Shown: positions 6,568 to 32,389, counted from the first letter of the stretch. The stretch is 36,336 bases of DNA from Hyalangium gracile (GCF_020103725.1 NZ_JAHXBG010000030.1:1-36336), one strand, 5' to 3'. The notes: generated by a model from the sequence alone, not told the origin. Numbers and translations: made by a program.

Positions 6568-6588
6568 CTCCCGAGGAATCCAAGCTCC

Positions 6589-8437: not shown

Positions 8438-8461
8438 GAAATCCGAAAGGAAGCACTCCAA

Positions 8462-8983: not shown

Positions 8984-8985
8984 TC

Positions 8986-9246: not shown

Positions 9247-9303
9247 CACGGACTGATTCCGCGGGGCCCTGGAAGCGGGGCCGCCGCGCTCGAGGATTTC
9301 AAG

Positions 9304-9828: not shown

Positions 9829-9956
9829 TCCAGGCCGGGCGCGCTTCACTTTGGGTGGTGCGCGCCGGTTCGCTTGTGTAGGCTCACGCGCCCCTCTCCT
9901 TCGTGGATAGGGGCGCTGTCGTTCTGTCAGGACTTTTTAAAGGGGATGGCTCCCAC

Positions 9957-11303: not shown

Positions 11304-11451
11304 GCACCGGGGTTTCTCCAGGCGCCTCTCTCCGGATGCCGGGGAGGGGCGCCTTGTCGTTCAGGGGTAGTCAGTCGTGCACGGGGGGCGCTTTCGGAGG
11401 TTCATCGCATTGGGCTTCCGTGCGTTCCTTCGGAGGAGCTGAGAGGAGCAC

Positions 11452-12099: not shown

Positions 12100-12188
12100 G
12101 TGGAGAGCGAGCGGGCTGGCGGGCGCCTCCGAGAGGAGTGACGCCCCCCGGCTCCCGGGTTCTCCCTGGAACAGGTTGAGTCGAAGTC

Positions 12189-12947: not shown

Positions 12948-13095
12948 TGGGGCCTGACGCGGGGTGAAATACGTTGTTAATATGAGGGGTTGATAGAAGT
13001 TCGGAGCGAGCGCGACACGGTACTTGCCACTTCGGGACCAAAGTGCTATCCCGCCGCGCTTCCAAGAGTATGGTGGTCCGGAAGAGGGTTTTCGA

Positions 13096-13314
13096 TTGCC
13101 GAAGGATGATTCGATCGAAGTTGAGGGGACCGTGATGGAGCCCCTTCCCAACGCGATGTTCCGCGTGGTGCTGGACAACGGCCACAAGGTGCTCGCGCAC
13201 ATCTCCGGCAAGATGCGGATGCACTTCATCCGAATCCTGCCGGGCGACAAGGTCAAGGTCGAGCTCTCGCCCTATGATCTGACTCGCGGCCGGATCACGT
13301 ACCGCGCGAAGTAG
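13096..13314 (+). CDS. infA: Translation initiation factor IF-1
   Basis: The 72-aa core matches IF-1 ([58 protein letters not shown]). Most likely start is the in-frame TTG at 13096 with RBS GGAAGAGGG upstream. The ORF-track start at 13024 would add a 24-aa extension with no homology. Confidence 0.85.
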
Positions 13315-13381
13315 TCGGCCGCCTCCGCCTGGCGGAGGCCTCCCTGCAGGCTTTTCATTCACGAAGGAAGGAAGTAGCGCC

Positions 13382-13498
13382 ATGAAGGTTCGGGCGTCCG
13401 TCAAGAAGATCTGCGACAAGTGCAAGGTGATCCGTCGCAAGGGCATCGTGCGCGTGATCTGCGCCTCCAACCCGCGGCACAAGCAGCGCCAGGGCTAA
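13382..13498 (+). CDS. rpmJ: 50S ribosomal protein L36, zinc-ribbon form
   Basis: 38-aa [41 protein letters not shown] with RBS GAAGGAAGGAAG upstream. It is too short for the ORF track, so I read it directly from the sequence. Confidence 0.9.
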
Positions 13499-13545
13499 CG
13501 GCCAGTCCGTTGGCTCCAGACCAACTCAACTAGAAGGAACGAACG

Positions 13546-13932
13546 ATGGCTCGTATCGCCGGTGTCGATCTCCCGCCTGCCAAGCGCGCGGTGATCTCGC
13601 TTCAGTACATCTACGGGATCGGCAACAAGACCGCCCATGACATCTGCGCCCACGCGGGGATCGATCTCGCTACGCGGACCAAGGACCTGACCGATGAGCA
13701 GGCCCGCAAGATCCGCGAGTACATCGAGGCCAACCTCAAGGTCGAGGGTGATCTCCGGCGCGAGGTGACGATGAACATCAAGCGGCTGATGGACCTGGGT
13801 TGCTACCGGGGCCTGCGTCACCGCAAGGGCCTGCCCGTCCGCGGCCAGCGCACCCACACCAACGCCCGTACCCGCAAGGGTCCCAAGCGCGGCATCGTGC
13901 GCGCCAAGCCGGCTGCTCCGGCGGGCCGCTAA
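13546..13932 (+). CDS. rpsM: 30S ribosomal protein S13
   Basis: 128 aa [26 protein letters not shown]... matches S13. Confidence 0.95.
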
Positions 13933-14004
13933 CCCGTTCCCCTACCTGCGCCGGCCCGATGAGGCGCCGGCGTCGATCATCTACTCTCAGGAGCACCCAC
14001 TCTC

Positions 14005-14448
14005 ATGGCTGAAGAAGTCAACACTCCCGCAGCCGCCCCGGCCGCGACCGAGGGCGGTGAGTCCGCCGCGGCGAAGAAGGCCAAGCGCAAGGGCAAGAAG
14101 AACATCCTCAACGGCGTGGTCCACATCCAGTCCACGTTCAACAACACCATCATCACGATCACGGACGTGTCCGGGAACGTGATCTCCTGGTCCTCCGCTG
14201 GCGCCCGTGGCTTCAAGGGCAGCCGCAAGTCGACGCCGTTCGCCGCGCAGGTCGCCGCGGGCGATGCCGCCGCCAAGGCCATGGAGCACGGGCTGAAGAA
14301 CGTGACGGTGCTGGTGAAGGGGCCTGGCGCTGGCCGCGAGTCCGCGCTGCGCGCCCTGGCCGCCGCGGGGCTGAAGATCAACCTCATCCGCGACGTGACG
14401 CCCATCCCGCACAACGGCTGCCGTCAGCCGAAGCGTCGCCGCGTCTAA
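14005..14448 (+). CDS. rpsK: 30S ribosomal protein S11
   Basis: 147 aa with the S11 core [22 protein letters not shown]...; an Ala-rich N-terminal extension precedes it. Confidence 0.93.
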
Positions 14449-14508
14449 TCCTCATCCGGGCCGCCTCGAGAGGGGCGGCCCCAGACCACCTTTCGAAGGA
14501 GAAGTTCC

Positions 14509-15135
14509 TTGGCTCGTTACACCGCCAGCGCCTGCCGCATCTGCCGGCGCGAGAACCTGAAGATGTACCTCAAGGGCGACCGCTGCTACACGGACAAGTG
14601 TGCCATCGAGCGCCGCCCCTATCCCCCCGGCCAGCACGGCCAGGGCCGCGTGAAGTTCTCCGGCTACGGCGTGCAGCTGCGCGAGAAGCAGAAGGTCAAG
14701 CGCATGTACGGCCTGCTCGAGAGCCAGTTCCGCGGCTACTACCACCGCGCGTCCGCGGCCAAGGGCAAGACGGGTGAGAACCTGCTGCAGCAGCTGGAGC
14801 TCCGCCTGGACAACGTGGTGTTCCGCATGGGCTTCGCGGATACGCGCAACGAGGCTCGCCAGCTGGTGCGCCACGGCCACTTCACGGTGAACGGCAAGCG
14901 GGTGAACATCCCGTCCTTCGCGGTGAAGCCGGGCAGCTCCGTCGAGGTGGCGGAGAAGAGCCGCAAGGTGCTGCGCATCTCCGAGGCGCTGGAGACCGTG
15001 GATCGCCGCGGCGTGCCGCAGTGGATCGACCTGGACAAGAAGGGCTTCAAGGGCACGGTGAAGACCGCCCCGAACCGTGAAGACCTGACCATGCCGATCC
15101 AGGAGCAGCTCATCGTCGAGCTCTACTCCAAGTAA
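14509..15135 (+). CDS. rpsD: 30S ribosomal protein S4
   Basis: 208 aa [31 protein letters not shown] (Zn-finger S4 N-terminus). TTG start with RBS AAGGAGAAG at 14496-14504. Confidence 0.93.
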
Positions 15136-15318
15136 GGCGTGAGGCCCCACGAGGGCCTGCTTCCTTGCTTCAGGCGCCCTGGCGGCCACCGCCGGGGCGT
15201 CGTGCTTCTTTCTGGCCGGCCTGGCCGGTCTCCATTATTCGTCGTACCCCCGCGTGCCCATCCTCCTGCCACCCTGGCGGGTAAGTCGGTGGTGGCGCAC
15301 GCCTCGAGGAGCAACACC

Positions 15319-16362
15319 ATGGCTGATACGTTCATCGCGAAGAACTGGCGCGACCTCATCAAGCCGCGCCGGCTGGAAGTCGATCAGGACTCGCTCACCA
15401 CCACCTACGGCAAGTTCGTCGCGGAGCCGCTCGAGCGCGGCTTCGGCACGACGCTGGGCAACTCGCTGCGCCGCGTGCTCCTGAGCTCGCTGCAGGGCGC
15501 GGCCATCACCTCGGTGAAGATCGAGGGCGTGGACCACGAGTTCACCACCATCCCCGAGGTGGCCGAGGACGTCACCGACATCGTGCTGAACCTGAAGGAA
15601 GTCCTCCTTCGGATGCACACGAACGAGACGAAGACGCTGCGCATCGAGGCCGAGGGTCCCAAGGAGATCAAGGCCGGCGACATCATCGCGGACCAGGACG
15701 TGGAGATCCTCAACCCCGGTCACCACATCTGCACGGTGTCCGAGGGCGGCAAGGTGCGCATGGAGCTGACGTGCCGCCGCGGCCGTGGCTACGTGGCCGC
15801 CACCGTCAACAAGGTCGCCGGTTCTCCCATCGGCACCATCCCCATCGACTCGCTGTTCTCGCCGATCCGCAAGGTGAACTACCAGGTCACCAACGCCCGC
15901 GTCGGTCAGGTGACTGACTACGACAAGCTGGCGCTGGAGGTCTGGACGGACGGCTCCGTTACGCCGCAGGACGCGGTGGCGTACGCGGCGAAGATCATCA
16001 AGGAGCAGCTCTCGGTCTTCGTGAACTTCGACGAGACCGAGGAGCCGGTGGTGGCCGAGGCCCCGAAGGAGGAGGCCAAGCTCAACGAGAACCTGTTCCG
16101 CTCGGTGGATGAGCTGGAACTCTCGGTGCGCTCCGCCAACTGCCTGCAGCAGGCCAACATCAAGACCATCGGCGACCTGGTGCAGCGTACCGAGGCCGAG
16201 ATGCTCAAGACGAAGAACTTCGGCCGCAAGTCGCTCAAGGAGATCAAGGAGATCCTGGCGGAGATGGGCCTGTCGCTCGGCATGAAGCTGGAGAACTGGC
16301 CCCCGAAGCAGGCTCCGGTGGCCCCTGCGGCTCCGGCGGCCAGCGCGGCTCCCAAGGCCTAG
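15319..16362 (+). CDS. rpoA: DNA-directed RNA polymerase subunit alpha
   Basis: 347 aa [21 protein letters not shown]... with a typical alpha NTD and CTD. The ORF-track start at 15139 adds an implausible 60-aa extension; ATG 15319 has RBS GAGGAG upstream. Confidence 0.93.
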
Positions 16363-16534
16363 GCCTTTCGTGGTACCTCCACCCGCGCCGTGACACGGCT
16401 TCACGCGGCGCGGGAAGAGGGGCTCTCCCCAGAGCCCATTGGCAATGGCGGCGCTCGTGTCGGAGCCGCCCTTCCCACCCGGTACCTGATACGGCCGGAG
16501 TGGTGGAGCCCTGAAGGGCTCCGGAGTCGCTCAC

Positions 16535-16960
16535 ATGCGTCACAAGGTTGGACAGAGGAAGCTCCACCGCAGCACGAGCCACCGGCTCGCGATGCTCAAC
16601 AACATGGTCACCTCGCTGCTGGAGCACGAGGCCATCCGCACCACCGTCCCCAAGGCCAAGGAGGCCCGGAAGATGGCGGAGCGGATCATCACCCTCGGCA
16701 AGCGCGGCGGTCTGGCCAATGTTCGGCTCGCGGCTCGCATCGTGAAGGACAAGAACGTCCTCCAGAAGGTGTTCAGCGAGTACAAGGACCGGTACGCCAA
16801 CCGCAAGGGCGGCTACACCCGCATCGTGAAGCTCGGCTTCCGCCGTGGCGACGCCGCGGAGATGGCCCTGCTCGAGCTGGTGGACCGTCCCGCGAAGCAG
16901 GCGGCTCCCGCCGAGGGTGGCGAGGCCGAGGCGAAGACCGAGGAGAAGACCGAGGGGTAG
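16535..16960 (+). CDS. rplQ: 50S ribosomal protein L17
   Basis: 141 aa [37 protein letters not shown]... matches L17, with an acidic C-terminal tail. Confidence 0.95.
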
Positions 16961-20117: not shown

Positions 20118-20394
20118 CTGAGGCCTTGGAGTGAGAGCCTGCCATACCCGGAGCGCTTGCGCGTTCCCGTTGTGCGTCCCTGGCCCGCCAGGCCTCCCTG
20201 GCGCCCCGGAGGGCTCCCGGGCGAGCAGTGGGCATCTGCTGGCGGCCAGGGCCCCTGGGCACTACCCCAGAGGCCACACCGAGCGTACGGGGGGCGGAGC
20301 AGGACGGGGGCATGGAGCGGCGGGTTCTACCACGGACCGCCCCCGCCTTTGGTGCTGGTATGCGTCGCCCGGTGAGGCTACAAGCAGGGGTGGC

Positions 20395-21009
20395 GTGGCC
20401 AGGAAAAAGTTCATCGCCGTCGCAGGCAACATCGGCGCCGGCAAGACAGAGCTCACTTCGTTCCTCTGCCGCAAGTACGGGCTCACTCCGTACTTCGAGC
20501 CGAACGATCAGAACCCCTATCTGGCCGACTTCTACAAGGACATGAAGAAGTGGGCGTTCCGGTCGCAGATCTTCTTCCTCACCCACAAGTTCCGGCTCCA
20601 CCGCGAGATGGAGCGCCATGCCGGCACCGTCCTACAGGATCGCACCATCTATGAGGACGCGGAGATCTTCGCCAAGAACCTGCACCGCCAGCGCTTCATC
20701 GACCGGCGCGACTGGCAGATGTACCGCGAGCTCTATGAGACGATCTCCCAGGTGCTGACCCCGCCCGACCTGATGATCTACCTGCGCTGCCCGGTGCAGA
20801 CCCTCAAGGAGCGCATCCGGCTGCGCGGCCGAGCCATGGAGAAGGACATCCCCACGCTCTACCTCAAGCGCCTCAATGCCCTGTACGAGGAATGGTTCAG
20901 TAACTACAAGATGTCGCCCGTCCTCGTTCTCCCGACGGACAAGCTGGATTACCTGACCAACCTGGTGGATCGCGTGGATCTCTTCCGCCAGATCGAGAAG
21001 CACCTGTGA
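20395..21009 (+). CDS. Deoxynucleoside kinase (dNK / deoxyadenosine-deoxyguanosine kinase family)
   Basis: 204 aa from GTG 20395. P-loop IAVAGNIGAGKTELT and dNK-like motifs (YFEPNDQNPYL, FRSQIFFLTHKFR, DRTIYEDAEIFAKNL). The ORF-track extension from 20131 has no homology and is probably not translated. Confidence 0.75.
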   Translation: MARKKFIAVAGNIGAGKTELTSFLCRKYGLTPYFEPNDQNPYLADFYKDMKKWAFRSQIFFLTHKFRLHREMERHAGTVLQDRTIYEDAEIFAKNLHRQRFIDRRDWQMYRELYETISQVLTPPDLMIYLRCPVQTLKERIRLRGRAMEKDIPTLYLKRLNALYEEWFSNYKMSPVLVLPTDKLDYLTNLVDRVDLFRQIEKHL

Positions 21010-22184
21010 AGGAGGTCTACGCTCTGGCCACCGAGTCGTCCTCCTCGCCGTCCCTGGCCGAGCTGCGCCATACGTTCGAGTCGGATGACGTGCGCTTCTC
21101 GCCGCGCGAGGGGGAGGCCGGGTTCATCGTCCAGGCCGAGGGGACCCGCGTGGAGGTGCGCTTCAGCACCCAGGGGCCCTCCTTCGAGGGCGCCGATCAG
21201 CGCCTGCTGACCGGCAGCGAGGAGGCCCAGCAGGCCTTCCAGCGCGCCAAGGGCTTCTTCTACATCTCCGTGGAGCCGGGCTCCGGGCCCCAGCCCACCG
21301 TGCCCGTCTTCGAGGCGCTGTGGTGCGCGCGCTCGCTGATGGAGCTCACCCAGGGCGTGCTGCTGGATCTCACCTCGTACAAGCTGCACGACGTGGCGGA
21401 CGTGGTGGAGATCACCGAGCTGGACTTCGACATCCGCGACCATGTGAACCTCCACGCCGTGGCCGCCATCGAGGGCGACACCCCCCTGTGGGTGCACTCG
21501 CACGGGATGGAGAAGTTCGGCACGCGGGACCTGGAGATCTTCCACCTGGGCGAGGAGGACCTGCTGGCCGCGGAGATGTTCCTCCACGAGCTGTGCACCG
21601 ACATGGCCTTCGGCCAGGGCCCCGAGCCTCGCAAGGAGGTGCACACCAGCGAGGGCCAGTCCTTCATGATGGTCCCCTCCGAGGAGGCTCGCATCAACCT
21701 GCTGGGCGTGCCGCTGGAGACCTTCGAGGGCCACGAGGCGCTGTTCCTCAGCGTGGTGTCCCCCCTGGGCCGGCACAACACCGCCGAGCTCTTGCGCCCG
21801 TACCGCGAGCGCTTCGTGCCCGAGCCCGAGGAGCGCACCGAGTCGCTGCGCGTCGAGTCCCAGGCCCTGCTGCCCGCCTTCAAGGCTCGCTTCCAGCGCA
21901 AGGGGCTCATGGAGCCGCTCACCTTCCTGGTGCGCGCTCCCTTCGAGACCCACCCCGAGGGCCAGGCCGTCGAGGAGAACCTCTGGCTGGAGGTCATGCT
22001 CTGGGAGGAGGGCACGGTGGTGGGCAAGCTGGTGGATGGCGCCGTCCACACCACCGAGTGGCGCAAGGGCGCCCAGGTCGAGGTGGACGAGGAGCACGTC
22101 AACGCGCTCGCCATCAGCCGCGAGGGGCGCACCCTGGACGAGGAGGAGATGCGCGCCCTGCTCATCGCCGAGCGGCCCATGTAA
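21006..22184 (+). CDS. Hypothetical protein, function unknown; the C-terminal roughly 120 aa may resemble DUF2314/YegJ-like domains (from memory, unverified)
   Basis: 392 aa, acidic, no TM or signal peptide. GTG start overlaps the dNK stop (GTGA), suggesting translational coupling. High GC3 supports that it is coding. Confidence 0.6.
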   Translation: MKEVYALATESSSSPSLAELRHTFESDDVRFSPREGEAGFIVQAEGTRVEVRFSTQGPSFEGADQRLLTGSEEAQQAFQRAKGFFYISVEPGSGPQPTVPVFEALWCARSLMELTQGVLLDLTSYKLHDVADVVEITELDFDIRDHVNLHAVAAIEGDTPLWVHSHGMEKFGTRDLEIFHLGEEDLLAAEMFLHELCTDMAFGQGPEPRKEVHTSEGQSFMMVPSEEARINLLGVPLETFEGHEALFLSVVSPLGRHNTAELLRPYRERFVPEPEERTESLRVESQALLPAFKARFQRKGLMEPLTFLVRAPFETHPEGQAVEENLWLEVMLWEEGTVVGKLVDGAVHTTEWRKGAQVEVDEEHVNALAISREGRTLDEEEMRALLIAERPM

Positions 22185-22302: not shown

Positions 22303-24003
22303 ATGCCAGCCCTGCTGCTGCTCACCGGTCCTTCCGCTGGCCGCCGCTACGAGGTGGTCTCGGAAGTCACGATCGGTCGCAGCCCCTCCTGCGAGATCCA
22401 GATCGAGGACGACAAGGTGTCCCGGCGGCACGCTCGCATCTTCGTGCGCGCGGGGCAGGTGTGGCTGCGCGATCTGGAGTCCCGCAACGGCACGCTCGTC
22501 AACGGGCAGCGCCTGGAGGGCGAGGCCTGCCTGCTGCCCGGCGATCGCGTCCAGGTGGGGGAGACCACCGTCATCTACGAGCCGCTCAGCCAGGCGGCCC
22601 TGGCGCAGACGGAGCCGCTCGACGCCAGCCATGTGCCCATCGCCGAGGTGCTGCCTCACGTGGGCCCCCAGGCGGCCCTCTTCTCGGCGGGCGTGGCCCT
22701 GCTGGGAGCCACCAGCGAGGCCATGGTGCTGCGGCGCCTGGTGGAGGAGGCCCTGCACGCGCTCAATGCGGACCGCGCCGCGGCGCTGCTGGGCCGGCAG
22801 GAGGGGTTGCTCACCGCGGCCGTGTCCGGCGCGGCCTCCGTGGAGGTGCCTCGCGCCATGGCGAGCATGGCTTTGGAGCTGAAGGAGGTGGCCTCCTCGG
22901 GCACCGCGCTGTGCGCTCCACTGGTGGCCTCGGGGGGCATGCCCTTCGGGCTGTTGTTCGTGGGGTGCAACGAGCCCCGCTTCGGCGCCCTGGAGGTCCA
23001 GCTCGTGGCGGCGCTCGGGCGCATGGGCGGCGAGGCGTACACCGCCATGCGCTCGCGCGCGGTGGAGGAGCAGGCCCAGGTGGAGCTGGTCGGCACGTCC
23101 CGGCCGTTCCGCCGCATGGTGGAGCAGGCCCGCCGCGCCGCCGCCAGCGCCGCTCCCGTGGTCATCTCGGGGGACCCCGGGGCGGGCAAGAGCCTGCTGG
23201 CCCGGTTCGTCCACTCCCACTCGCCGCGAGGGCTCGGGCCGCTGGTGGCGGTGGACTGCCGGCAGCCGACCGTGGAGGAGCTCCTCTTCGGTGGGCCCAG
23301 CACTCCCGGCCAGCCCCCGCGCTCCTCCGCGCTCCTGCGCGCGGATGGAGGCTCGCTGCTGCTCCAGCACGTGGAGGCGCTGTCGGGCGCCATCGTCGAG
23401 CGGCTGACGCGGATGCTCGCGCGCAAGGTGGCTCCGGCGCGGCAGGGCGGCGAGGAGCCCGTGGACCTGCGCCTCATCGCCACCGCGAGCGCCCCCGCCC
23501 AGCTCCTGGCCGCCAAGGGGGAGATGGACATGGCCCTGGCGATGGCTCTGTCCGGGCTGGAGATCGAGGTGCCTCCGCTCCGCGAGCGCCGCGCCGATGT
23601 GCTCACGCTCTTCGAGCACTTCGCCCGGCGTGGAGTGGGGGATGCTCGGAAGCCTCCGCCCGTGCTGAGCCCTGGGGCCCGGCGCCTGCTGACCGACTAT
23701 GCGTGGCCGCAGAACGTCCGCGAGCTGAAGCTGGTGAGCGAGCGGCTCGCGCGCCTGTACGCCGGCAGCGAGGTGCACACGCTGCGCCTGCCTCCGGAGA
23801 TCCAGGAGGGCTCGGTGGACTCGGAGCCGCGCAGCCTGCAGCAGATGGTCGAGCGACTGGAGCGGGATGCCATCATCGAAGCGCTCCAGGCCGCGGGAGG
23901 GCGGAAGATCCGCGCGGCGGAGCGCCTGGGCATCAGCCGTCCCACGCTCGACAAGAAGATCGAGGAGTACGCCATCCGCGTGGAGCGGTCTCGGCGGAGC
24001 TGA
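22303..24003 (+). CDS. FHA-domain sigma-54-dependent transcriptional regulator (bacterial enhancer-binding protein family) with C-terminal Fis-type HTH
   Basis: 566 aa. N-terminal FHA (GRSPSCEIQIEDDKVSRRHARIF...LRDLESRNGTLVNGQRL). Central AAA+ domain with Walker A GDPGAGKS. C-terminal HTH (KIRAAERLGISRPTLDKKIEEY). The GAFTGA loop is degenerate (ELLFGGPSTPGQPP). Confidence 0.8.
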   Translation: MPALLLLTGPSAGRRYEVVSEVTIGRSPSCEIQIEDDKVSRRHARIFVRAGQVWLRDLESRNGTLVNGQRLEGEACLLPGDRVQVGETTVIYEPLSQAALAQTEPLDASHVPIAEVLPHVGPQAALFSAGVALLGATSEAMVLRRLVEEALHALNADRAAALLGRQEGLLTAAVSGAASVEVPRAMASMALELKEVASSGTALCAPLVASGGMPFGLLFVGCNEPRFGALEVQLVAALGRMGGEAYTAMRSRAVEEQAQVELVGTSRPFRRMVEQARRAAASAAPVVISGDPGAGKSLLARFVHSHSPRGLGPLVAVDCRQPTVEELLFGGPSTPGQPPRSSALLRADGGSLLLQHVEALSGAIVERLTRMLARKVAPARQGGEEPVDLRLIATASAPAQLLAAKGEMDMALAMALSGLEIEVPPLRERRADVLTLFEHFARRGVGDARKPPPVLSPGARRLLTDYAWPQNVRELKLVSERLARLYAGSEVHTLRLPPEIQEGSVDSEPRSLQQMVERLERDAIIEALQAAGGRKIRAAERLGISRPTLDKKIEEYAIRVERSRRS

Positions 24004-24012: not shown

Positions 24013-25089
24013 ATGAAGTTTCAGCAGATCGCTCAGTACCGGCTCCAGCAGCAGCAGATTGCCCGGACGCGGTTCAAGACTCCGGGACAGATCGTCTCCT
24101 GGCTCGGGGCCCTCCAGGCGCAAGACTATCCCGGGGCGAAGTGGTCCATCGGCCTGCGGCTGCCGGACACCACCGATGCGGACGTCGAGCAGGCCATCGC
24201 CGACGGGGCCATCGTCCGCTCGTGGCCGATGCGCGGCACGCTCCACATCGTGGCTCCGGAGGATCTGCGCTGGATGCTGGCGCTCCTGGCTCCCCGCAAC
24301 ATGGAGAGCGCCGCCCTGCGGCACCGGCAGATCGGCCTGACGGCCGCCAGGTTCTCGCGCAGCCAGAAGCTCTTCACCAAGGCCTTGCAGGGCGGCCAGG
24401 CCCTGACGCGCGACGAGCTGTATGCCGTGCTGGAGCGCGCCCGGCTCTCGACGGACAGCCAGCGCGGGTATCACTTCTTGTGGAGGGCGGCTCAGGAGGG
24501 GCTGATCTGCTTCGGCCCCACGCGCGGCAAGCAGCAGACCTTCGTGCTCCTGGACGAGTGGGTGCCCGCGTCCAGGAAGCTCGATCGCGAGGAGTCCCTG
24601 GCGGAGCTGGCGATGCGCTACTTCACCAGCCACGGCCCCGCCACGTTGCAGGACTTCCTGTGGTGGTCCGGGCTGAAAGCCGCCGAGGCGAGAGCCGCGC
24701 TGGACTCGGTCTCCTCGCGGCTCGAGCAGGTGACCGTGGACGGACAGGAATACTGGCTGGCCCGCGACCTGCGAGCGCCGAGAGCCGCCTCTCCCACCGC
24801 CTATCTGTTGCCGGGCTTCGATGAGTACATGCTCGGCTACACGGACCGCGGCGCCGTGGTCGCGCCGGAGCATCGGAAGAAGTGGCTCCCCACCAACGGG
24901 ATGTTCAGCCCGATCGTCGTCATTGACGGCCAGGTGCTGGGCACCTGGAAGCGGACGCTCAAGAAGAAGGCGCTGGTCGTGACGGTCCGCTCGTTCGTTC
25001 CGCTGAGCAAGGCCCAGAAGCGCGCGGTCGAAGCCGCGGCCGAGCCCTATGGCCGCTTCATGGGCGCACCCGTCGAGCTGTCCTTCTGA
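24013..25089 (+). CDS. AlkZ/YcaQ-like winged-helix DNA glycosylase (HTH_42 / DUF1006 family)
   Basis: 358 aa. Q35-A36-Q37 (LGALQAQDY) sits at the position of the AlkZ catalytic Q-x-Q motif. Overall length and layout match YcaQ/AlkZ. It starts 9 nt after the EBP stop. Confidence 0.65.
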   Translation: MKFQQIAQYRLQQQQIARTRFKTPGQIVSWLGALQAQDYPGAKWSIGLRLPDTTDADVEQAIADGAIVRSWPMRGTLHIVAPEDLRWMLALLAPRNMESAALRHRQIGLTAARFSRSQKLFTKALQGGQALTRDELYAVLERARLSTDSQRGYHFLWRAAQEGLICFGPTRGKQQTFVLLDEWVPASRKLDREESLAELAMRYFTSHGPATLQDFLWWSGLKAAEARAALDSVSSRLEQVTVDGQEYWLARDLRAPRAASPTAYLLPGFDEYMLGYTDRGAVVAPEHRKKWLPTNGMFSPIVVIDGQVLGTWKRTLKKKALVVTVRSFVPLSKAQKRAVEAAAEPYGRFMGAPVELSF

Positions 25090-25213
25090 GCTCGCGGGAG
25101 CAGGAAGGCTACGGTGGACCCAGGTAGGATGACGGGAAACCCTCAGTGGAACGGGACTGGCGCCGCGAGCAGAATGAGGGGGTTCTCGTGCTTCTCCTGT
25201 CTCGAGGTGCTTC

Positions 25214-28087
25214 ATGGGCAACTCCTCCTCCAGTGGCATTGGCGGCTCGCGTCCTCCCTCCACGACTCGGACCCAACAGGCGTCCACGCAGGCGACCCAG
25301 AAGCCTGTCAGCGTGCCCCCGCCGCCGAAGCCGCCGCCACCTTCTCCCAAGGAGCTGATGGACAAGTTCTTCGCCCAGCAGAAGTCGAAGAACCCCAACA
25401 TCTCCGAGACGGTCGCAGGCGATGTCTCGGTGGCCAACGCGCCCCGCATGAGCCCCGCGCAGCTGATGGCCCTGGCCTCCAAGGGCTTCGCCGCCACGCT
25501 GCCCAAGGCTGGCACCGGCGCGGGGGCCACGGGCACGGTGGCTCAGAGCACTCCCTCCAAGCCGCCCACGGCCCAGAGCCCCGCCTCGTCGCTGGCGAGC
25601 GAGGTGCTCAACGATGGCAGCTCGAACTGCCTCGAGAGCGCCTACGAGTCCGCACGCCCGGGCGATCAGATCCTCCTCTACAGGGACGCGGATGATCCCG
25701 TGGGCCACGCCGTCGTGCAGCGCCCGGATGGCTCCATCTCCGACCCGAACGAGCCCGGCAAGGTGTACGCCAGCCGCGCGGAGTGGGAGGCGGCCCACAC
25801 CGACTACCACCAGCCGGTCTCCATCCCCCAGTCGCACCTGCGCCAGGTCTTCGCCCAGCCGCCCGGCCCGCAGCGAGACGCCGTCATCCAGAAGCTGGGG
25901 CTCACCTCCATCGCCTACCGCCAGGTGGCCGATGGTGTCACCGCCGAGCGCCAGGACGCGCTGCGCTTCGCGGCCGAGCAGATCGGCAATGAGCCCGCGA
26001 TGATGGAGCAGGTCTTCGCCGGGACCCTGCAGCCGGGACCGCTCACCGCCGAGGAGAGGGCCTTCCTCGTCCAGCAGATGGTGGAGCGCAGCATCGCGAG
26101 CGGTGATGCGCAGGCCTTCTCGCTGGCGGGCTCCAACCCGGCGGCGTACCCGGAGCTGGCGCGGGCGCTGGGCCATGCCTTCGAGATGGGGGCGGTGACG
26201 CCCGAGATGCTGGGCCAGTTGATGGGCCCCGACGGCCTGGGGCGATACGAGGAGTACTCGGAGTTCGCCGAGCTCATCGCCGCCAGCGGCTCGGATGCGC
26301 TCCAGTCCGAGGTGGCCGGGCAGCTGTGGGCGCTGTCGGGCGGGGATCTGTCGGCCCAGGCCGCGGCCCTCACCGCCGCCGGGAGCTCCGGGCCCGCCGC
26401 CCAGCGGCTCATCGACACCGCGGGCGTGGACGCGCTCACCCAGACCCTCACCACCCTCAGCGCCAACTCGAGCATGGGCACCGAGGACAACGTCTGGGCC
26501 CAGGCCGTCGGCGGACTGATGTCCGGACTGGCCGAGCTGCCTCGCTCGGAGACGACGGACCGTCTGGGGGCCACGGTCCTCATGGCGCTGCCGCCGGAGA
26601 CGCTCCAGAACAGCAGCACCGTGCGCGGCCCCGTGGCCCAGTACCTGTCGTCCATCCGGTTCCCCGGGGACACCGCGGCCCAGCAGGCCGACACCCGGAA
26701 CTGGGAGGCCATCCTCCAGAACACCCATGGGGCCTCGCTGCTCTTCAACCCGCAGCTGCCGGTGGAGGCCCGCCAGGCCAATCTGCTCTTCTTCCTCCAG
26801 CGGCCGAACTTCAACCCCGAGCTGCTCAACACCTACCAGGGCAACCTGGGCAGCATCGCCGCGGCCGAGGTCCAGACGGCCCTGGGCAACATGGATCCGG
26901 CGAACGTGAACGGGGCGGCGGAGCTGCCGGCCGTCCCCGGAGACCTGGCCGGCCAGTTCCCGGCCATCGCGAACCTGCCCCAGCCGGTGACCGCGGAGAG
27001 CCTGCAGGGCTCCATCCCCAACCCCATCACTCCGGCCATGGCCGCCGACTACCTGGATGCCCTGGCCTCCTCCATCGCCGCCACCGGCAACACGGACCTC
27101 TCCGCGTACACCGGCGGCGACCAGGCCATGGCGACCCTCTTCAACGTGATCGCCGGCAACCCCATCCAGCAGGCCCACCTGGATGACTTCTCGGCCATCG
27201 GCGTCGCGGGGCTGAGGGAGCTAGCCCAGCAGATCCGCGGCTCGAGTGATCCCGCGTTCGTGGCCCAGGCGCTCACGCTCGGCGGCATCCAGCACGACAC
27301 GTACTTCGACAACCTGGGGCCCTTCGTGGACAGCGTGATCGCCCAGCGCGATCAGATCCTGGGCAACATCACCGGTGTGCGGCAGCTGGCCGAGACCGCG
27401 TGCAAGACGGGCGTCTCCGCGCTGGCCATGGCCGCCGGAGGGCCCGTGGCCGCCGCCGCAGCCAACGCCGCGCTCGGCTCGGTCTTCGCGCAGCTCGAGG
27501 CCAACCAGGAGGGGCGCGAGCTCACCCTGCCCAACCTCGTCGGCGGGGCGATCCTGGACTTCGGCGTGGGAGCGCTGGCGCCCGTGCTCGGCGCGCGCGC
27601 CAAGGATGCGCTCGGGCCCGTCCTGGGGCGGCTGGCTCCCGTCATCCAGGGCCTGTTCGAGGCCGCGGGCGGTCAGGCCGCGGACATCCTCCGCGATCCG
27701 GCGAAGCTCGAGGAGCTCTGGGCGAGCGGCCAGTCGCGAGACGATCTGATGCGGGCCCTCATCCTCGGCACCGTCACCAACTCCATCCCGTGGGACTCGC
27801 TCACGCCCAACCTCAAGGGCCAGATCGCCACCTTCCTGCGCGTGGACTTCGAGACGCAGGACATCGCGTCGGAGTTGCTCAAGGGCGCGGCGATGCAGGC
27901 CGCCACCATCTGGTTCGACCCGAACTTCCAGGCCCGGCTGCGCTCGGGGGAGATCTCCCCCGAGCAGGCTGTCCAGGAGATGCAGGCCAGCGGCGTCAGC
28001 ATCTTCGGAAATGGCACCACCGGCACGGACCCCGCCACCACCGAGGCCATGCTGCGCATCCTCATGTCGAGCCCCGAGACGCCGTGA
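25214..28087 (+). CDS. Large hypothetical protein (957 aa); Pro/Ser/Thr-rich disordered N-terminus, then a long Ala/Gly/Leu-rich predicted-helical region; no signal peptide or TM
   Basis: GC3 is very high in this frame. The overlapping minus-strand 689-aa ORF is Arg/Gly-rich and is a typical antisense artefact. N-terminus MGNSSSSGIGG. A Cys...His...Asp cluster at about aa 170-215 (SNCLESAY...GHAVV...DGSISD). Confidence 0.7.
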   Translation: MGNSSSSGIGGSRPPSTTRTQQASTQATQKPVSVPPPPKPPPPSPKELMDKFFAQQKSKNPNISETVAGDVSVANAPRMSPAQLMALASKGFAATLPKAGTGAGATGTVAQSTPSKPPTAQSPASSLASEVLNDGSSNCLESAYESARPGDQILLYRDADDPVGHAVVQRPDGSISDPNEPGKVYASRAEWEAAHTDYHQPVSIPQSHLRQVFAQPPGPQRDAVIQKLGLTSIAYRQVADGVTAERQDALRFAAEQIGNEPAMMEQVFAGTLQPGPLTAEERAFLVQQMVERSIASGDAQAFSLAGSNPAAYPELARALGHAFEMGAVTPEMLGQLMGPDGLGRYEEYSEFAELIAASGSDALQSEVAGQLWALSGGDLSAQAAALTAAGSSGPAAQRLIDTAGVDALTQTLTTLSANSSMGTEDNVWAQAVGGLMSGLAELPRSETTDRLGATVLMALPPETLQNSSTVRGPVAQYLSSIRFPGDTAAQQADTRNWEAILQNTHGASLLFNPQLPVEARQANLLFFLQRPNFNPELLNTYQGNLGSIAAAEVQTALGNMDPANVNGAAELPAVPGDLAGQFPAIANLPQPVTAESLQGSIPNPITPAMAADYLDALASSIAATGNTDLSAYTGGDQAMATLFNVIAGNPIQQAHLDDFSAIGVAGLRELAQQIRGSSDPAFVAQALTLGGIQHDTYFDNLGPFVDSVIAQRDQILGNITGVRQLAETACKTGVSALAMAAGGPVAAAAANAALGSVFAQLEANQEGRELTLPNLVGGAILDFGVGALAPVLGARAKDALGPVLGRLAPVIQGLFEAAGGQAADILRDPAKLEELWASGQSRDDLMRALILGTVTNSIPWDSLTPNLKGQIATFLRVDFETQDIASELLKGAAMQAATIWFDPNFQARLRSGEISPEQAVQEMQASGVSIFGNGTTGTDPATTEAMLRILMSSPETP

Positions 28088-28153
28088 GCGCCGGCTTGCT
28101 CGGGTGACGAGGCTTGGGAGCGCGGGGGATCGCGCTCCCGTGCTCGTCCCGGC

Positions 28154-30931
28154 TCAGTACAGGAGCAGCTTGCCGGCGCGGAAGAAGCACACCCGCGTCT
28201 GATCCTGCGCGTCGACGGCGGCGTCGATCTCCGCCGCGTCCACCGCGCTCAGGTTCTCGGTGCGAGACCAGTAGTTGTCCGAGCCTGGCCGAGCGACCTC
28301 GAGCTGGCCTCCGTGAGTGAAGGCGAGGCGAGGTCTGCCGCTGGCATCCGCGGCGACGGCGAGCTCCGTGAGGGAGAATCCCTCCACGTTGGACACGCTG
28401 ACCGTGCTGGCGCTGAACGGGGTGCCGAGCGTCACCCGCTGCAGCCCGTACTGTGTGAGCAGCAGCGGTCCCGTGGTCGTCCAGGAGGTGGAGATCCTCG
28501 CGCTGCCCAGGCTGCCAGGCAGCGTCAGCGCCTCGGGTGCGCCCGTGCTCTTCCAGGCCCCCAGGAAGGTGTCGCTGTAGGGGATGTAGAGCGTGCCGCT
28601 CGGGCTGAAGACGGCATCCCCGAGGGGCTGCTGGTGGCTGCTGGCGGTGGTGGGAAAGGTGACCAGCGTGGAGGACCAGGCAGCGGCGCCCGTGCGGTAG
28701 GCGACGGCCGTGCGCCAGAGATTTCCGATGCTGTTCACGTAGCCGTACCAGCCATAGACGACGGTGGGACGGTTGCCGTTGGAGGGATCCAGAGCAATGG
28801 AGACCCAGGTGTCCGAGTCGACAGGCGTCGCGGTGGAGTCCACGCGCTCGCGGATCCAGGTGTTCCCGGAGCGCGTGGCGTACCAGAGCCCCTTGCCGCC
28901 CAGCAGGTATGCCAGGTGGGGTGTCCCATCGGCGGCGACGGTCATCGCCAGGGACTCCAGGACGACGCCGCCGGTGTTGAAGCCCATGCCATCCACCTGC
29001 TCCATGGCCCAGGTGGTGCCGGTGCGCGTGCCGTACCACAGAGAGGGGTGTGTCAGTCCGCGGAAGGCCAGGTGCGCCACGGCTCCACGCATCTCCAGCT
29101 GGCACGTCGAGCCGAAGCGCTCGTGGCCCTCGGCCACCACCTCGGGGACGCGGACGTAGGGAGTCACGGTGAGGGTGAGGGTGGCGGTGGCCTTCAGCCC
29201 GTCGTTGTCCGTGACTTCCAGCGTCACGGTGTACGTGCCCGGGGAGGCATAGGTGTGCGGGGCCTGAGGAGCCGTGCCGTCCACGGGCGGTGTCGAGTCG
29301 CCGAAGTCGAAGCGGTAGCGGGTGACAGTGCCATCCGGATCGCTGGAGGTGGCGCCGTCGAAGGTGGCGACGCGGAGGGCTTCCGCCTGAGCGGGCCCTG
29401 TCAGCCGCGCCACGGGAGGCAGCTTCACCTGCGCTGGCTCCATGACGAGCTGGATGCTGGAGCTGGCCACCCGGCCGCCGGAGTCGGTGGCCGTCAGGGT
29501 GATCTGATGCGTACCCGCGCCCAGCGAGCCCACGTCCAGTGAGGAGCCCTGGCCAAGCTGCCCGGCGAGGCTGGACTGCCAGGAGAGGCGGTTGCCGGTG
29601 AGCACGCCGTCCTCGGGATCCTGTGCGGAGCCGCGCAGAGCCACCACGGTGCCTACGGTGAAGCGGGAGCCGTTGGCCGGAGCGGTGATCTGAACGGAGG
29701 GAGGGTTGTTGGCGGGGAGGACCTCGACGGTGATGCGAGCGGCGCTCTCGTTGCCCGTGGAGTCCCTGGCGGTGAGGACGAGCTCATGGGAGCCAGGCGA
29801 GAGCCCCGGCACGGTGAGCGGGCTGCCTGTCCCGAGGGAGCCCGCGAGGCTGGAGGACCAGCGCAGCGAGGCGCCCGACAGGGGGCCATCCTCGGCGTCA
29901 GTGGCGGTGCCCTCCAGGGTGAGGGGAGTGCCAGCGAAGAGGGTGAAGCCGTTGGCGGGGCGGGTGATGGAGACGGTGGGAGCCGTCTGGCCCTGGACGG
30001 TGACGGTGACGAGCACGGAGGCGCTGGAAGAGGCGCCCAGCGAGTCGGTGGCGGTGAGCGTCAGGGTGTGAGAGCCGGCCGAGAGCAGCACGCCGGTCAC
30101 CTGGCGGCCCGTGCCCAGGGCGCCATCCTTGCTGGAGGTCCACTTCAGAGCGCTGTCGGCCAGCGTGCCATCCTCGGCATCCGTGGCGCTGCCTTGCAGG
30201 GTGACGGCCTGGGTGGTGAGGAAGCGTGCGCCCTCGGTGGGCTGTGTGAGGGTGACGACCGGCTTCAGGTTGGTGCCGGGAGGGACGACCGTCACCGTGA
30301 CGCTGGCGTAGCCAACCTGGCCTGACGGATCCACGGCGGTCAACAGCAGGCGGTGAACCCCGCGAGTCGCGCCGGAGAAGGACAGCTGGGTGCCGGTGCC
30401 GATGACGCCGCCTTTGTCGGAGCTCCAGGTGAGCGCCGCGCCGGACAGCGCTCCCGTCTCTGGATCCAGGGCCTTGCCGCGCAGCGGAATGGGCGAGCCC
30501 TCCTCGAAGGTGGCGCCCGAGGTGGGCGACTCGATGGTGGCCACCGGAGGCTGATTCTCGATGATGACGGTGACGGAGAGCTGCGCACGCGCCTGCTTAC
30601 CGCCGGAGTCGGTGACATCCAGGCTGAGGCGGTGCTCGCCGGCGGAGAGCCGGGCGCTCAGGGGAGTGCCGGTGCCCAGCTCGCCATCGAGGCTCGAGGA
30701 CCAGCGCAGGGCGGTGCCGCTCAGAGGGCCGTCTTCCGGATCGGTGGCCAGACCTGCCAGCTCATGTGGCCCGGCTCCCCGCAGCGTGGCGCCATTCTCG
30801 GGCGAGAGGATGCGGGCGGTAGGCGCGGTGTTCTCAGGCGGTGGCGGTGGCGGTGGAGGCGGCTGAGGCTTGTCGCCCCCACAGCCCGCCAGCGCCACGA
30901 GCGCGAGCACCAGAAGGATGCGTGTGGACAT
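28154..30931 (-). CDS. Surface lipoprotein with five tandem Ig-like repeats (about 93 aa each), one PKD domain and a roughly 330-aa C-terminal beta-propeller-like domain of unknown function
   Basis: 925 aa. Signal plus lipobox LVALAGCGG, then a poly-Pro linker. Each repeat carries ATDxEDGxL...W(S/T)SS(L/K)DGxLGTG...G.H.L.LTA.DS.G. PKD-like segment RYRFDFGDSTPPVDGTAPQAPHTYASPGTYTVTLEVTDNDG. The C-terminal domain has recurring (L/I)AY...GLWYAT.SGNTW units. Confidence 0.8.
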   Translation of the reverse strand: MSTRILLVLALVALAGCGGDKPQPPPPPPPPPENTAPTARILSPENGATLRGAGPHELAGLATDPEDGPLSGTALRWSSSLDGELGTGTPLSARLSAGEHRLSLDVTDSGGKQARAQLSVTVIIENQPPVATIESPTSGATFEEGSPIPLRGKALDPETGALSGAALTWSSDKGGVIGTGTQLSFSGATRGVHRLLLTAVDPSGQVGYASVTVTVVPPGTNLKPVVTLTQPTEGARFLTTQAVTLQGSATDAEDGTLADSALKWTSSKDGALGTGRQVTGVLLSAGSHTLTLTATDSLGASSSASVLVTVTVQGQTAPTVSITRPANGFTLFAGTPLTLEGTATDAEDGPLSGASLRWSSSLAGSLGTGSPLTVPGLSPGSHELVLTARDSTGNESAARITVEVLPANNPPSVQITAPANGSRFTVGTVVALRGSAQDPEDGVLTGNRLSWQSSLAGQLGQGSSLDVGSLGAGTHQITLTATDSGGRVASSSIQLVMEPAQVKLPPVARLTGPAQAEALRVATFDGATSSDPDGTVTRYRFDFGDSTPPVDGTAPQAPHTYASPGTYTVTLEVTDNDGLKATATLTLTVTPYVRVPEVVAEGHERFGSTCQLEMRGAVAHLAFRGLTHPSLWYGTRTGTTWAMEQVDGMGFNTGGVVLESLAMTVAADGTPHLAYLLGGKGLWYATRSGNTWIRERVDSTATPVDSDTWVSIALDPSNGNRPTVVYGWYGYVNSIGNLWRTAVAYRTGAAAWSSTLVTFPTTASSHQQPLGDAVFSPSGTLYIPYSDTFLGAWKSTGAPEALTLPGSLGSARISTSWTTTGPLLLTQYGLQRVTLGTPFSASTVSVSNVEGFSLTELAVAADASGRPRLAFTHGGQLEVARPGSDNYWSRTENLSAVDAAEIDAAVDAQDQTRVCFFRAGKLLLY

Positions 30932-30940: not shown

Positions 30941-32389
30941 CTACTGGAACATCACCTTCGAGCCGGACTGGAAGCAGTAGTGGAGCGCGCCCGTCGTGGG
31001 CCGCTGCGCCAGGGCGACGCGCCTGTTGGTGGTCGCCGTACCGACGTCCGTATAGGTCCAGTAGTTGTTGGCGTTGGGGGCGACCAGCTCCAGGGAGCTC
31101 CCATGGAGATGGATTTCCTGGGGCTTGCCCCCGGCGAAGACCAGGTCACCCACGGGCGCCTGGACTCCTTCGATATCCGAGACGATGAAGGAGGCCACGG
31201 GCGTCGTCGTTCCGACAGTGATGTCCAACAGGGTGCTCCCCGCTCGGAGCAGCAGGCGTCCCGTCCCCGTCCTCACCAGGGCCTCCTGGTCGCTCTCGTA
31301 CAGAGTGCCGCTGAAGAACACGTAGCTGGCAGGGGCCGCGTTTGCCTTCCAGGTGCCGATCGCGGCGTACCCGAAGGGAATGTAGAGCGTCCCGTTGGGC
31401 TCGAAGACCATCTCCCCTCGGACGTTCTGCTCCTCATAGGCGTAGTTGTGCGGGAACTCGAGCATGGTGGCGGTCCAGGCGTTCGCGCCTGTCCGGTAGG
31501 CCATGACGGTCCGGGTGGTGGTGGTCCCCGCGCTGCTGAGATAGCCACGCCAGCTATAGGCGATCGTGGGGCGGTTGCCCTGGGACGGATCCAGGGCGAT
31601 GGAGACGCGGTAGTTGGAGTGGGGCGGGAGCGAAGGGGTGTCGACCCGCTCACGGATCCACGTGTTGCCCGAGAGCGTGGCGTACCACACGCCCTTGCCG
31701 CTCATCCTGTAGGCGATGTGGGGCTTGCCCGCGGTGTCCAGGACCATCGCCATGGTGTTCATCACGATGCCGCCCGTGTTGAAGCCCATGCCATCCACCA
31801 TCTGGGTCGTCCACGCGGAGCCGTTCCAGGTGCCGTACCAGAGCGAGGGGTGGGTCTCGTTGTGGTAGATGAGGTGCCCGATCCCCGCCGCATCGAAGGC
31901 CAGGTCACAGACATCGCCCGTCTCGTCGTCGGAGGTATCCACGGCCACGGGGGCGAACGCCACGTTGGCGGCCTGGGGTTCGGTGGACTGGCTGGAGGCC
32001 TCGGCGGAGACGCGGTACTGGAAGGTCTCGGTGAGCTGCTCGCCCGAGTCCGTCTCCGCGGTGAGGGTGAGGGTGGCGGTGCCGGCCCGAGGCAGCGTCC
32101 AGGTGGCCTCCATCCCCTGCGTCTCCAGCATCCCGCCGCTGGCGCTCCAGAGCACGGATTTCACGTCCGGCCGCGAGGAGACGGCGCGGAAGCGCTCCAC
32201 CGTGCGCTCCAGATAGGGGCCCTGGTTCTCTCGCTCCAGGCTGAAGCTGCGCGCGGTGGGCAGCGGCAGGTTCCCTGAGGAGGGGATGGCCGGGTGGGAA
32301 GGGACCACCGAGGTGGGCTCGGCGCAGCCCACGAGGACGAGAGCGGTACACAGGCCGAGGCGCCAGGCCTGCCAGAGAAGCGAGGTCAT
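30941..32389 (-). CDS. Paralogous lipoprotein: one Ig-like domain plus the same C-terminal beta-propeller-like domain as the upstream lipoprotein
   Basis: 482 aa with lipobox LVLVGCAEP. The C-terminal region is about 55-60% identical to the neighbour (HPSLWYGTWNGSAWTTQMVDGMGFNTGG...GKGVWYATLSGNTWIRERVDTPS). A shared 24-nt DNA identity, GTGTTGAAGCCCATGCCATCCACC, occurs in both genes. The gap to the neighbour is 9 nt. Confidence 0.8.
   Translation of the reverse strand: MTSLLWQAWRLGLCTALVLVGCAEPTSVVPSHPAIPSSGNLPLPTARSFSLERENQGPYLERTVERFRAVSSRPDVKSVLWSASGGMLETQGMEATWTLPRAGTATLTLTAETDSGEQLTETFQYRVSAEASSQSTEPQAANVAFAPVAVDTSDDETGDVCDLAFDAAGIGHLIYHNETHPSLWYGTWNGSAWTTQMVDGMGFNTGGIVMNTMAMVLDTAGKPHIAYRMSGKGVWYATLSGNTWIRERVDTPSLPPHSNYRVSIALDPSQGNRPTIAYSWRGYLSSAGTTTTRTVMAYRTGANAWTATMLEFPHNYAYEEQNVRGEMVFEPNGTLYIPFGYAAIGTWKANAAPASYVFFSGTLYESDQEALVRTGTGRLLLRAGSTLLDITVGTTTPVASFIVSDIEGVQAPVGDLVFAGGKPQEIHLHGSSLELVAPNANNYWTYTDVGTATTNRRVALAQRPTTGALHYCFQSGSKVMFQ

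Follow-up and report, generated by a model that had tools for sequence, protein, structure and literature searches.

A stretch of 36,336 nucleotides from the predatory soil bacterium Hyalangium gracile (GCF_020103725.1 NZ_JAHXBG010000030.1:1-36336), referred to here in its entirety as the window, carries on its plus strand an open reading frame (ORF; 25214-28087) for a 957-residue protein that begins MGNSSSSGIGG, just as an original prediction made from the sequence alone had described. The window is ~68% G+C, a composition at which spurious long ORFs are frequent. The ORF is a real gene, since its G+C contents at the three codon positions (GC1/2/3 of 0.68/0.51/0.94) have the same signature as those of adjoining real genes and its product is 100% identical to a 'hypothetical protein' of H. 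gracile. We take the ATG at 25214 as the start because it follows a Shine-Dalgarno-like site and because the leader encoded from it is collinear and conserved in the orthologue from Pyxidicoccus fallax. The protein divides into a leader, a small module with a predicted Cys-His-Asp triad and a long C-terminal payload (Table 1), and it belongs to a modular family whose members are candidate exported effectors.

Table 1. Features of the 957-residue protein, its gene and the surrounding window. Amino acids (aa) are numbered from the ATG at 25214. KD19, hydropathy score; AF2, AlphaFold2; pLDDT, predicted local distance difference test.
Feature	Position	Strand	Remarks
Shine-Dalgarno-like GAGGTG	25204..25209	+	4 nt 5' of ATG (GAGG core 6 nt before); read from sequence
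Leader, aa 1-122	25214..25579	+	Ser/Thr/Pro/Gln-rich, predicted disordered, without Sec-type hydrophobic region; starts MGNSSSS
Poly-proline tract PPPPKPPPPSP, aa 35-45	25316..25348	+	probable extended rigid spacer
Minimal papain-like cysteine-hydrolase module (predicted), aa 123-242	25580..25939	+	
Cys139 codon	25628..25630	+	predicted catalytic nucleophile; motif NCLE (SNCLES), helix N-terminus
His165 codon	25706..25708	+	predicted general base; motif GHAVV, beta-strand
Asp177 codon	25742..25744	+	predicted third triad residue; motif DPN
All-alpha solenoid, aa 243-720 (~480 aa)	25940..27373	+	two shareable sub-modules, ~240-480 and ~370-720
Hydrophobic Gly/Ala-rich region, aa 721-822	27374..27679	+	two candidate membrane-inserting helices
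Hydrophobic segment 1, aa 731-758	27404-27487	+	KD19 1.45
Hydrophobic segment 2, aa 772-795	27527-27598	+	KD19 1.76
C-terminal helical domain, aa 823-957, and stop codon	27680..28087	+	AF2 pLDDT ~70-93
GC-rich hairpin GGGAGCGCG-N6-CGCGCTCCC	28116..28139	.	perfect, 9 bp, between two convergent genes, without T-run
Ribosomal-protein S10/spc/alpha region	1-16960	+	left half of window; Pfam-confirmed genes
L2	1570-2415		Pfam-confirmed
SecY	9903-11303		Pfam-confirmed
Adenylate kinase	11452-12099		Pfam-confirmed
Methionine aminopeptidase (Map)	12189-12947		Pfam-confirmed
RpoA	15139-16362		Pfam-confirmed
Deoxynucleoside kinase	20131-21009		
392-aa protein	21006-22184	+	weak matches to DUF2314 (E 1.9e-05) and DUF4026_C (E 1.5e-04)
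FHA-GAF-sigma54-activator-HTH_8 regulator	22303-24003	+	566 aa
AlkZ-like glycosylase	24013-25089		PF06224, E 2.6e-76
925-aa protein	28154-30931	-	multiple Ig-like/PKD domains (Big_7, PKD_4)
482-aa ORF	30941-32389	-	GC3 0.92

The compact cluster of Cys, His and Asp to which the original prediction had drawn attention is conserved throughout a protein family. Its residues are C139, H165 and D177 (the stretch DGSISD being D172-D177), with a C-H spacing of 26 aa and an H-D177 spacing of 12 aa. A local hidden Markov model (HMM) built from the hits of an exhaustive search locates the module of ~120 aa in 78 of 97 collected proteins (P-numbers in what follows). Across the 68 copies that are near full length, H165 and the P178 that follows the aspartate are invariant, D177 is present in 67 and C139 in 66; L127, E130, D134-G135, N138, E141, A143, G164 and R221 are also nearly invariant. 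Judged from this alignment, chance cannot give such a pattern of conservation. The module is moreover the best-conserved part of the protein, with 86% identity to the P. fallax orthologue as against 48% in the leader and 52-75% in the remainder.

An AlphaFold2 model of the module, computed from a trimmed alignment of 39 sequences (A2), has a pLDDT of 89.5 and a predicted template modelling score of 0.82. In this model C139 is the first residue of a helix (model residue 24; helix H24-31), H165 (model residue 50) lies in the second strand following that helix (E49-54) and D177 (model residue 62) comes right after the next strand (residues 59-61). The features expected of a papain-like enzyme are thus found in the model: a Cys at a helix N-terminus and a conserved His, then Asp, on successive strands. 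Papain-like and transglutaminase-like hydrolases canonically have these elements in the order seen in the model: Cys-helix, His-strand, Asp-strand. Structural neighbours of the model are weak and nearly all papain-like, among them AvrPphB, LapG, NTAQ1/C8orf32, Cif, staphopain C, PLAAT4, TseH, SpvD, protein-glutaminase, NlpC/P60 enzymes, PcsB, SseI, PeiW, TecA and Tse1. Foldseek gave no match below E 0.18, its top ranks being taken by AvrPphB, LapG, MARTX RID, a Cpe1-type papain-like toxin, CdiA-CT, CwlO and MepS. Element order and neighbours agree with the papain-like fold that had been proposed from residue spacing, and we consider it very probable that the module belongs to this fold class.

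Sequence comparison places the module in no catalogued family. Neither the full protein nor the isolated module had a match in Pfam, NCBIfam or PADLOC even at E <= 10, and profiles made from the whole protein (A1) or from the module (A2), when run against PDB sequences, picked up noise only (a leiomodin poly-Pro stretch, a designed repeat protein and an adhesin). Because no Pfam, NCBIfam or PDB sequence matches it, the module is, as far as these searches reach, a new and unusually compact family inside the papain-like class.

A word-indexed homologue search with the H. gracile protein found three relatives only; 94 were recovered when 1.84 billion cluster representatives were searched exhaustively with HMMER. 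Most of the 94 match just residues ~120-245 and others match only parts of the C-terminal 700 aa. The description of the protein as an orphan accordingly holds for its full-length architecture, which has ~4 orthologues, and fails for its parts, which ~90 protein clusters have in common with it. The collected proteins span 93-1641 aa, and the module nearly always follows a leader of ~35-227 aa.

What follows the module is strikingly variable. A Pfam scan of 70 members identified SH3_3 ten times, Peptidase_C39_2 four times, PG_binding_1 and GH5 cellulase three times each, and LysM, CHAP, CdiA_C, DUF4781, DUF5995 and LGFP once each; the C-termini also contain several modules of no recognised type. 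P0009, an H. gracile paralogue annotated as 'LysM peptidoglycan-binding domain-containing protein', consists of leader, module, CHAP and LysM, and its CHAP match (best stretch aa 234-287) lies outside the module (aa 58-177). SH3b directly follows the module in P0010 and P0019, and the 1641-residue P0060 carries a CdiA_C toxin domain at its extreme C-terminus. Some members have little beyond leader and module (P0011, 196 aa; P0015, 169 aa) and are possibly fragments. From these sequences, the family order reads as a disordered leader without signal peptide, a papain-like head and a variable C-terminal payload. A constant N-terminal part with swappable C-terminal payloads follows the logic of polymorphic effectors, and the predicted partner domains (SH3b, LysM, PG_binding_1, CHAP, GH5, CdiA_C) point to bacterial envelopes rather than eukaryotic hosts. 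It is on these family architectures that the reading of the protein as a secreted effector, toxin or scaffold, already offered by the original prediction, is best supported. We rejected one lead towards a protein of type III secretion systems (T3SS): a T3SS_HrpK1 match (HrpK1/HrpF, PF16937) occurred in P0078 only, covered 42 aa and scored 23.6 bits, below the cut-off of 30.9, and the H. gracile protein has no such match.

The leader of the H. gracile protein is dominated by Ser (15%), Pro (15%), Ala (13%) and Thr (9%) and is the least conserved part of the protein, with 22 gapped positions against the P. fallax orthologue. It lacks a Sec-like N-terminal hydrophobic region, in keeping with the predicted absence of a signal peptide, and such a region is likewise missing from the great majority of those members (53 in all) whose N-terminus is complete. 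The median of the maximum hydropathy (10-aa window, first 40 aa) is 0.23 in the family leaders, and only two members exceed 2.0. The proline-rich tract noticed in the H. gracile leader has counterparts in the leaders of other members (a Pro-rich tract occurs in 21 of the 53). A second type of leader contains long charged segments rich in Ala, Arg and Glu (AEAARRRAEEARR...; for example in P0018, P0025, P0047, P0053, P0055, P0057 and P0061) that resemble single alpha-helix or coiled-coil rods. Both types may serve as extended stiff spacers between the extreme N-terminus and the module, and family N-termini frequently read M-[TS]-x-[KR]-[IV] ahead of the spacer.

The first residues of the protein had suggested N-myristoylation and delivery into eukaryotic cells, with Gly2 as a lipidation site for a host N-myristoyltransferase and the poly-Pro tract as a ligand of host SH3, profilin or EVH1 domains. 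The N-terminus does formally fit MGxxxS, poly-Pro tracts recur in the family as described above, AvrPphB, Cif, SpvD and SseI among the structural neighbours are eukaryote-directed effectors, and reviews describe myxobacteria as predators of eukaryotic microbes as well (PMC10849154). The pattern is present in this protein, but it is not conserved. Only 2 of the 53 members with a complete N-terminus have Gly2. The annotated start of the P. fallax orthologue lies too far downstream, and the in-frame sequence upstream of it is collinear with the H. gracile leader (PPTTSTQQTASTQ...PPPAPPPPAPK...APRMSPARLMAL in P. fallax and PPSTTRTQQASTQ...PPPPKPPPPSPK...APRMSPAQLMAL in H. gracile), so that the orthologue most likely begins MSGSFTRG, with Ser2 in place of Gly2. 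The metagenomic relative P0004 begins MIWERHF. Given these starts and the rarity of Gly2, MGxxxS is best read as a coincidence of a single sequence rather than a conserved feature. Many leaders, furthermore, have charged segments in place of poly-Pro, the domains accompanying the module are ones that bind or lyse bacterial cell walls, together with a CdiA toxin, and the myxobacterial system called T3SS* lacks needle and translocon (PMC12075869). We therefore regard a eukaryote-directed effector as highly improbable.

A further leader motif, [DE]-[FLM]-S-x-G-x-G-x-x-L-[RK] (for example DELSTGRGSALR; in short form [FLM]S.G.G..L[RK]), occurs 8-40 aa ahead of the Cys module in the leaders of 16 out of 54 members (P0018, P0024, P0026, P0029, P0033, P0041, P0042, P0046, P0048, P0053, P0054, P0058, P0064, P0065, P0069 and P0071). 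It could be a processing (cleavage) site or a docking motif. Taken as a possible cleavage site, it bears on whether the Cys module is purely a maturation or release protease that acts in cis, freeing leader or payload after export and having no substrate in a target cell. Analogues of such an arrangement are the cysteine protease domains of MARTX and TcdB, the self-processing of AvrPphB and the releasing peptidases of polymorphic toxins. The module is constant between leader and payload while payloads vary, independent catalytic payloads (CHAP in P0009, CdiA_C in P0060, GH5) make a second toxic activity unnecessary, and AvrPphB and LapG, which rank high among the structural neighbours, are site-specific processing proteases. 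On the other hand, the motif is missing from the leader of the H. gracile protein, P0011 and P0015 (possibly fragments, as noted) have hardly anything beyond leader and module, and the conservation of the module above all else would also fit an enzyme acting in trans. A head confined to such processing is possible, if doubtful.

The C-terminal 700 residues, previously taken for Ala-rich low-complexity sequence, are for the most part predicted to be ordered. When aa 240-957 were modelled with AlphaFold2 on 19 aligned sequences (A5), aa 240-720 came out as a confident all-alpha solenoid with pLDDT mostly >90. Confidence collapses at aa 721-822 (model residues 482-583, pLDDT <50) and recovers at aa 823-957, and the low-confidence stretch coincides with both hydrophobic segments. 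Remote homologues of this C-terminal module have a counterpart of the first segment, containing a central Pro, at the position that aligns with it, and there its KD19 reaches 2.0-2.3. Values of this size are typical of transmembrane helices. Contrary to the initial statement that the protein has no transmembrane segment, aa 721-822 are therefore marked by two conserved hydrophobic Gly/Ala segments, and we view the region as a candidate membrane-insertion element.

Parts of the payload are shared with other proteins. Residues 240-480 recur in P0004, P0007 and P0020, aa 835-952 in P0008, P0050, P0076 and P0079, and aa ~370-835 in long Myxococcota proteins with other termini (phosphoribosyltransferase, Uma2). 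The module of aa ~370-835, hydrophobic helix included, is present in P0084 and P0092, both of which have a phosphoribosyltransferase domain at the C-terminus (PF00156, E 1.6e-07); in P0090 a Uma2 endonuclease domain stands at the N-terminus. Because it is common to these proteins, the helical and hydrophobic module appears, from sequence, to be a reusable carrier for varied enzymatic ends.

The same payload features could also be accommodated by a protein that never leaves the cell. It would be cytoplasmic, anchored in the inner membrane by a hydrophobic hairpin, and serve as a scaffold or regulatory protease for envelope, motility or developmental complexes. The signal peptide is lacking, the hydrophobic helical pair could be a hairpin anchor with both ends cytoplasmic, large alpha-solenoids are typical of scaffolds, and the gene has a core chromosomal neighbourhood without an immunity gene. 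We nevertheless think this unlikely, since the LysM, SH3b, PG_binding_1, CHAP, GH5 and CdiA_C domains of paralogues act outside the cytoplasm or in other cells, and since a narrow, patchy distribution with several divergent paralogues per genome is that of conflict proteins and not of housekeeping ones.

The distribution of the family, which the original prediction had proposed as a check, proved narrow. A pattern scan with one genome per species found 37 loci, frequently two per genome, in Corallococcus, Myxococcus, Pyxidicoccus, Hyalangium, Archangium and Vitiosangium and in metagenome-assembled genomes (MAGs) of Myxococcota. All the named genera belong to the Cystobacterineae, the suborder of Myxococcota that includes H. 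gracile. The scan patterns were derived from close relatives and are biased towards them, so absence elsewhere is not proven; a word-indexed search with the module profile returned 4 proteins, missed known members and was excluded from the taxonomy. Nor is the restriction to Cystobacterineae absolute, because one member whose C/H/D module is intact, the 1314-residue P0078 (L036:7806-11750 (+), CAYRNF010000002.1), is encoded on a contig of 411 kb from a Pseudoxanthomonas-binned MAG. It is the only member seen outside Myxococcota (in a Gammaproteobacteria bin), which could reflect either horizontal transfer or mis-binning. A phage or endolysin origin was also considered and rejected: tblastn of the module against 50,697 phage records gave no match, and the neighbours are chromosomal.

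When the ORFs of all 37 loci were clustered, neighbours were shared only to the extent of synteny between close species, and no immunity-like gene recurred downstream. One observation concerns P. fallax, where a DUF2169 gene (L001:12432-13547) lies ~8.5 kb downstream of the orthologue, has no equivalent in the H. gracile window and is separated from the orthologue by genes for two Peptidase_M57 proteins, a DUF2381 protein, an alpha/beta hydrolase and a Peptidase_S41 protein. DUF2169 proteins are often associated with spike/adaptor clusters of type VI secretion systems (T6SS). This gene is among the points in favour of the family being T6SS cargo, with leader and module as a loading marker or adaptor-binding domain (compare MIX, FIX and RIX) and the C-termini as toxins. 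The layout without signal peptide, the conserved N-terminus with a polymorphic C-terminus that includes CdiA_C, and the presence of TseH and Tse1 among the structural neighbours would fit as well. Yet PAAR, VgrG, Hcp, adaptor and immunity genes are neither adjacent to the gene in the window nor conserved among the 37 loci, cargo that measures up to 1641 aa and starts with a long disordered leader would be atypical, and the invariant triad argues for catalysis over mere docking. Taking both sides together, we judge T6SS cargo to be quite unlikely.

The gene itself sits in a core chromosomal setting, with the ribosomal-protein S10/spc/alpha region occupying the left half of the window. The Pfam domains of RpoA in that region start only at ~residue 96, so the 407-aa ORF given for it, counted from the earliest possible start, probably reaches too far in the 5' direction. 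When 15 proteins of the window were compared by tblastn with the orthologue loci of P. fallax and a metagenome, only the 957-residue protein matched. The AlkZ-like glycosylase gene is directly upstream, as had been pointed out, and this adjacency is not kept in two other orthologue loci examined, for which reason we give it no functional weight. Two genes upstream and on the same strand is the gene for the FHA-sigma54 regulator, and on account of this activator the 124-nt gap before the start was searched for a sigma-54 -24/-12 element (TGG-N9-[TC]GC), of which there was none; scans for sigma-70 promoters and consensus intrinsic terminators also found nothing. Further upstream, the start of the ORF for the 392-aa protein overlaps the stop of the deoxynucleoside kinase gene by 4 nt, and the DUF4026_C match of this protein is under its gathering score. 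On the other side the next gene is convergent, 66 nt away, and encodes the 925-aa Ig/PKD protein; it is preceded in its own operon direction by the 482-aa ORF, which has no Pfam or NCBIfam match. The hairpin between the two convergent genes may be a bidirectional or factor-independent terminator of a high-GC type, or may be due to chance.

Our preferred reading, held with moderate confidence, is that the protein is an exported, modular antibacterial or predation effector with an active thiol-hydrolase head and a payload that acts on a target membrane. The protein would exit the cell by a Sec-independent route, its hydrophobic helices would insert into or perturb the target membrane, and the Cys head would, to go by its fold and invariant triad, cut a peptide, isopeptide or amide bond. 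The cut could be made in cis, so that the payload is matured or released, or in trans, in which case the substrate would be an envelope component or a protein of the target. The fixed position of the head, its co-occurrence with catalytic payloads that are independent of it, and the presence of the processing proteases AvrPphB and LapG among its structural neighbours speak for action in cis; the extreme degree to which the head is conserved and the numerous deamidases, amidases and endopeptidases among those neighbours speak for action in trans. The two modes cannot be separated on these grounds. The targets would most likely be other bacteria, as prey or competitors, and not eukaryotic cells, because paralogues carry cell-wall-binding, cell-wall-lytic and CdiA-type toxin payloads.

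Several observations weigh against an exported membrane-active effector. The hydrophobic segments of the H. gracile protein itself are only moderately hydrophobic and Gly/Ala-rich, and could be buried helices of a soluble fold. Its C-terminus has no recognisable toxin or cell-wall domain. The gene's location is core chromosome and not an obvious island, the search for T3SS and T6SS loci that had been recommended found none in the window, and genes for secretion systems, chaperones or immunity proteins are neither adjacent to it in the window nor conserved at the 37 loci. The absence of such genes is unusual for interbacterial toxins.

A more specific version of this effector reading would connect the family with the contact-dependent predation machinery of myxobacteria, in which a 'needleless' T3SS* works with a Kil/Tad pilus. 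According to reviews and primary papers to 2025, the effectors of T3SS*/Kil are unknown, and the lysis of prey, which requires T3SS*, involves degradation of peptidoglycan at localised sites (PMC12075869, PMC12428579, PMC10433427). Co-occurrence of Kil and T3SS* is restricted to Cystobacterineae (PMC12428579), and every named genus with the present family falls in this range. If the family were to supply the effectors, export would be directed by the disordered N-terminus, the rod of poly-Pro or charged helix would act as a spacer, and the papain-like head with its variable payloads would bring about localised peptidoglycan degradation and prey lysis. The lack of an adjacent immunity gene would, we infer, fit weapons against non-kin prey. 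The link is circumstantial only, consisting of the lack of a Sec signal in most members, cell-wall-directed payloads and a matching phyletic range, and we rate its chances as slim.

The module represents a previously uncatalogued and very compact family of papain-like cysteine hydrolases (as predicted), and its clear triad and high-confidence model make it ready for curation and biochemistry. The family also presents what appears to be a new, Cystobacterineae-centred polymorphic effector architecture of non-Sec leader, rigid spacer, enzymatic head and swappable payloads, which differs from the known myxobacterial weapons (SitA lipoproteins, T6SS/PAAR and Rhs). As the substrates of Kil/T3SS* are an explicit open question, it further offers a concrete list of candidates with the expected properties. 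The family would become far more interesting if it were exported by the predation machinery; were it unrelated to predation, it would still be a modest addition to the papain-like superfamily.

The papain-like/transglutaminase-like superfamily, clan CA in MEROPS, includes NlpC/P60, CHAP, BTLCP/LapG, YopT/AvrPphB and Cif-type deamidases. Neither the H. gracile protein nor its isolated module has an HMM match to NlpC/P60 (PF00877) or CHAP (PF05257). LapG (BTLCP, MEROPS C93) is a free-standing periplasmic enzyme with a signal peptide that acts in trans on LapA, whereas the present module is fused inside its putative substrate, has no signal peptide and shares no sequence similarity with LapG, so that the features defining LapG are absent. 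The T3SS effectors YopT and AvrPphB (MEROPS C58) have a much larger C-H spacing and are delivered into eukaryotic cells and lipidated there, whereas the present family lacks a sequence match to them and does not conserve Gly2.

Modular cell-wall hydrolases and endolysins offer a second comparison, since several members pair the Cys module with SH3b, LysM or PG_binding_1 without a signal peptide. In contrast to endolysins, the family has long disordered leaders, sizes of up to 1641 aa, a separate CHAP domain in P0009 and no phage context, and the H. gracile protein lacks any wall-binding domain.

A parallel in overall organisation is with polymorphic toxins (SitA, CdiA, Rhs, LXG), which likewise combine a conserved N-terminal region with variable C-termini, among them the CdiA_C of one member here. 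Lineage restriction and several divergent paralogues per genome are further points of likeness, and an escort-domain logic is known from SitA, a group of myxobacterial lipoprotein toxins (PMC10433427). The present family differs from these toxins in that no PAAR, VgrG, Rhs, two-partner secretion (TPS) or LXG/WXG domain was found by Pfam and NCBIfam in the H. gracile protein or the 70 scanned members, in that there is no lipobox or Sec-like hydrophobic region, and in that no adjacent immunity gene is conserved across the 37 loci. It differs also in that its conserved N-terminal domain is itself a predicted enzyme.

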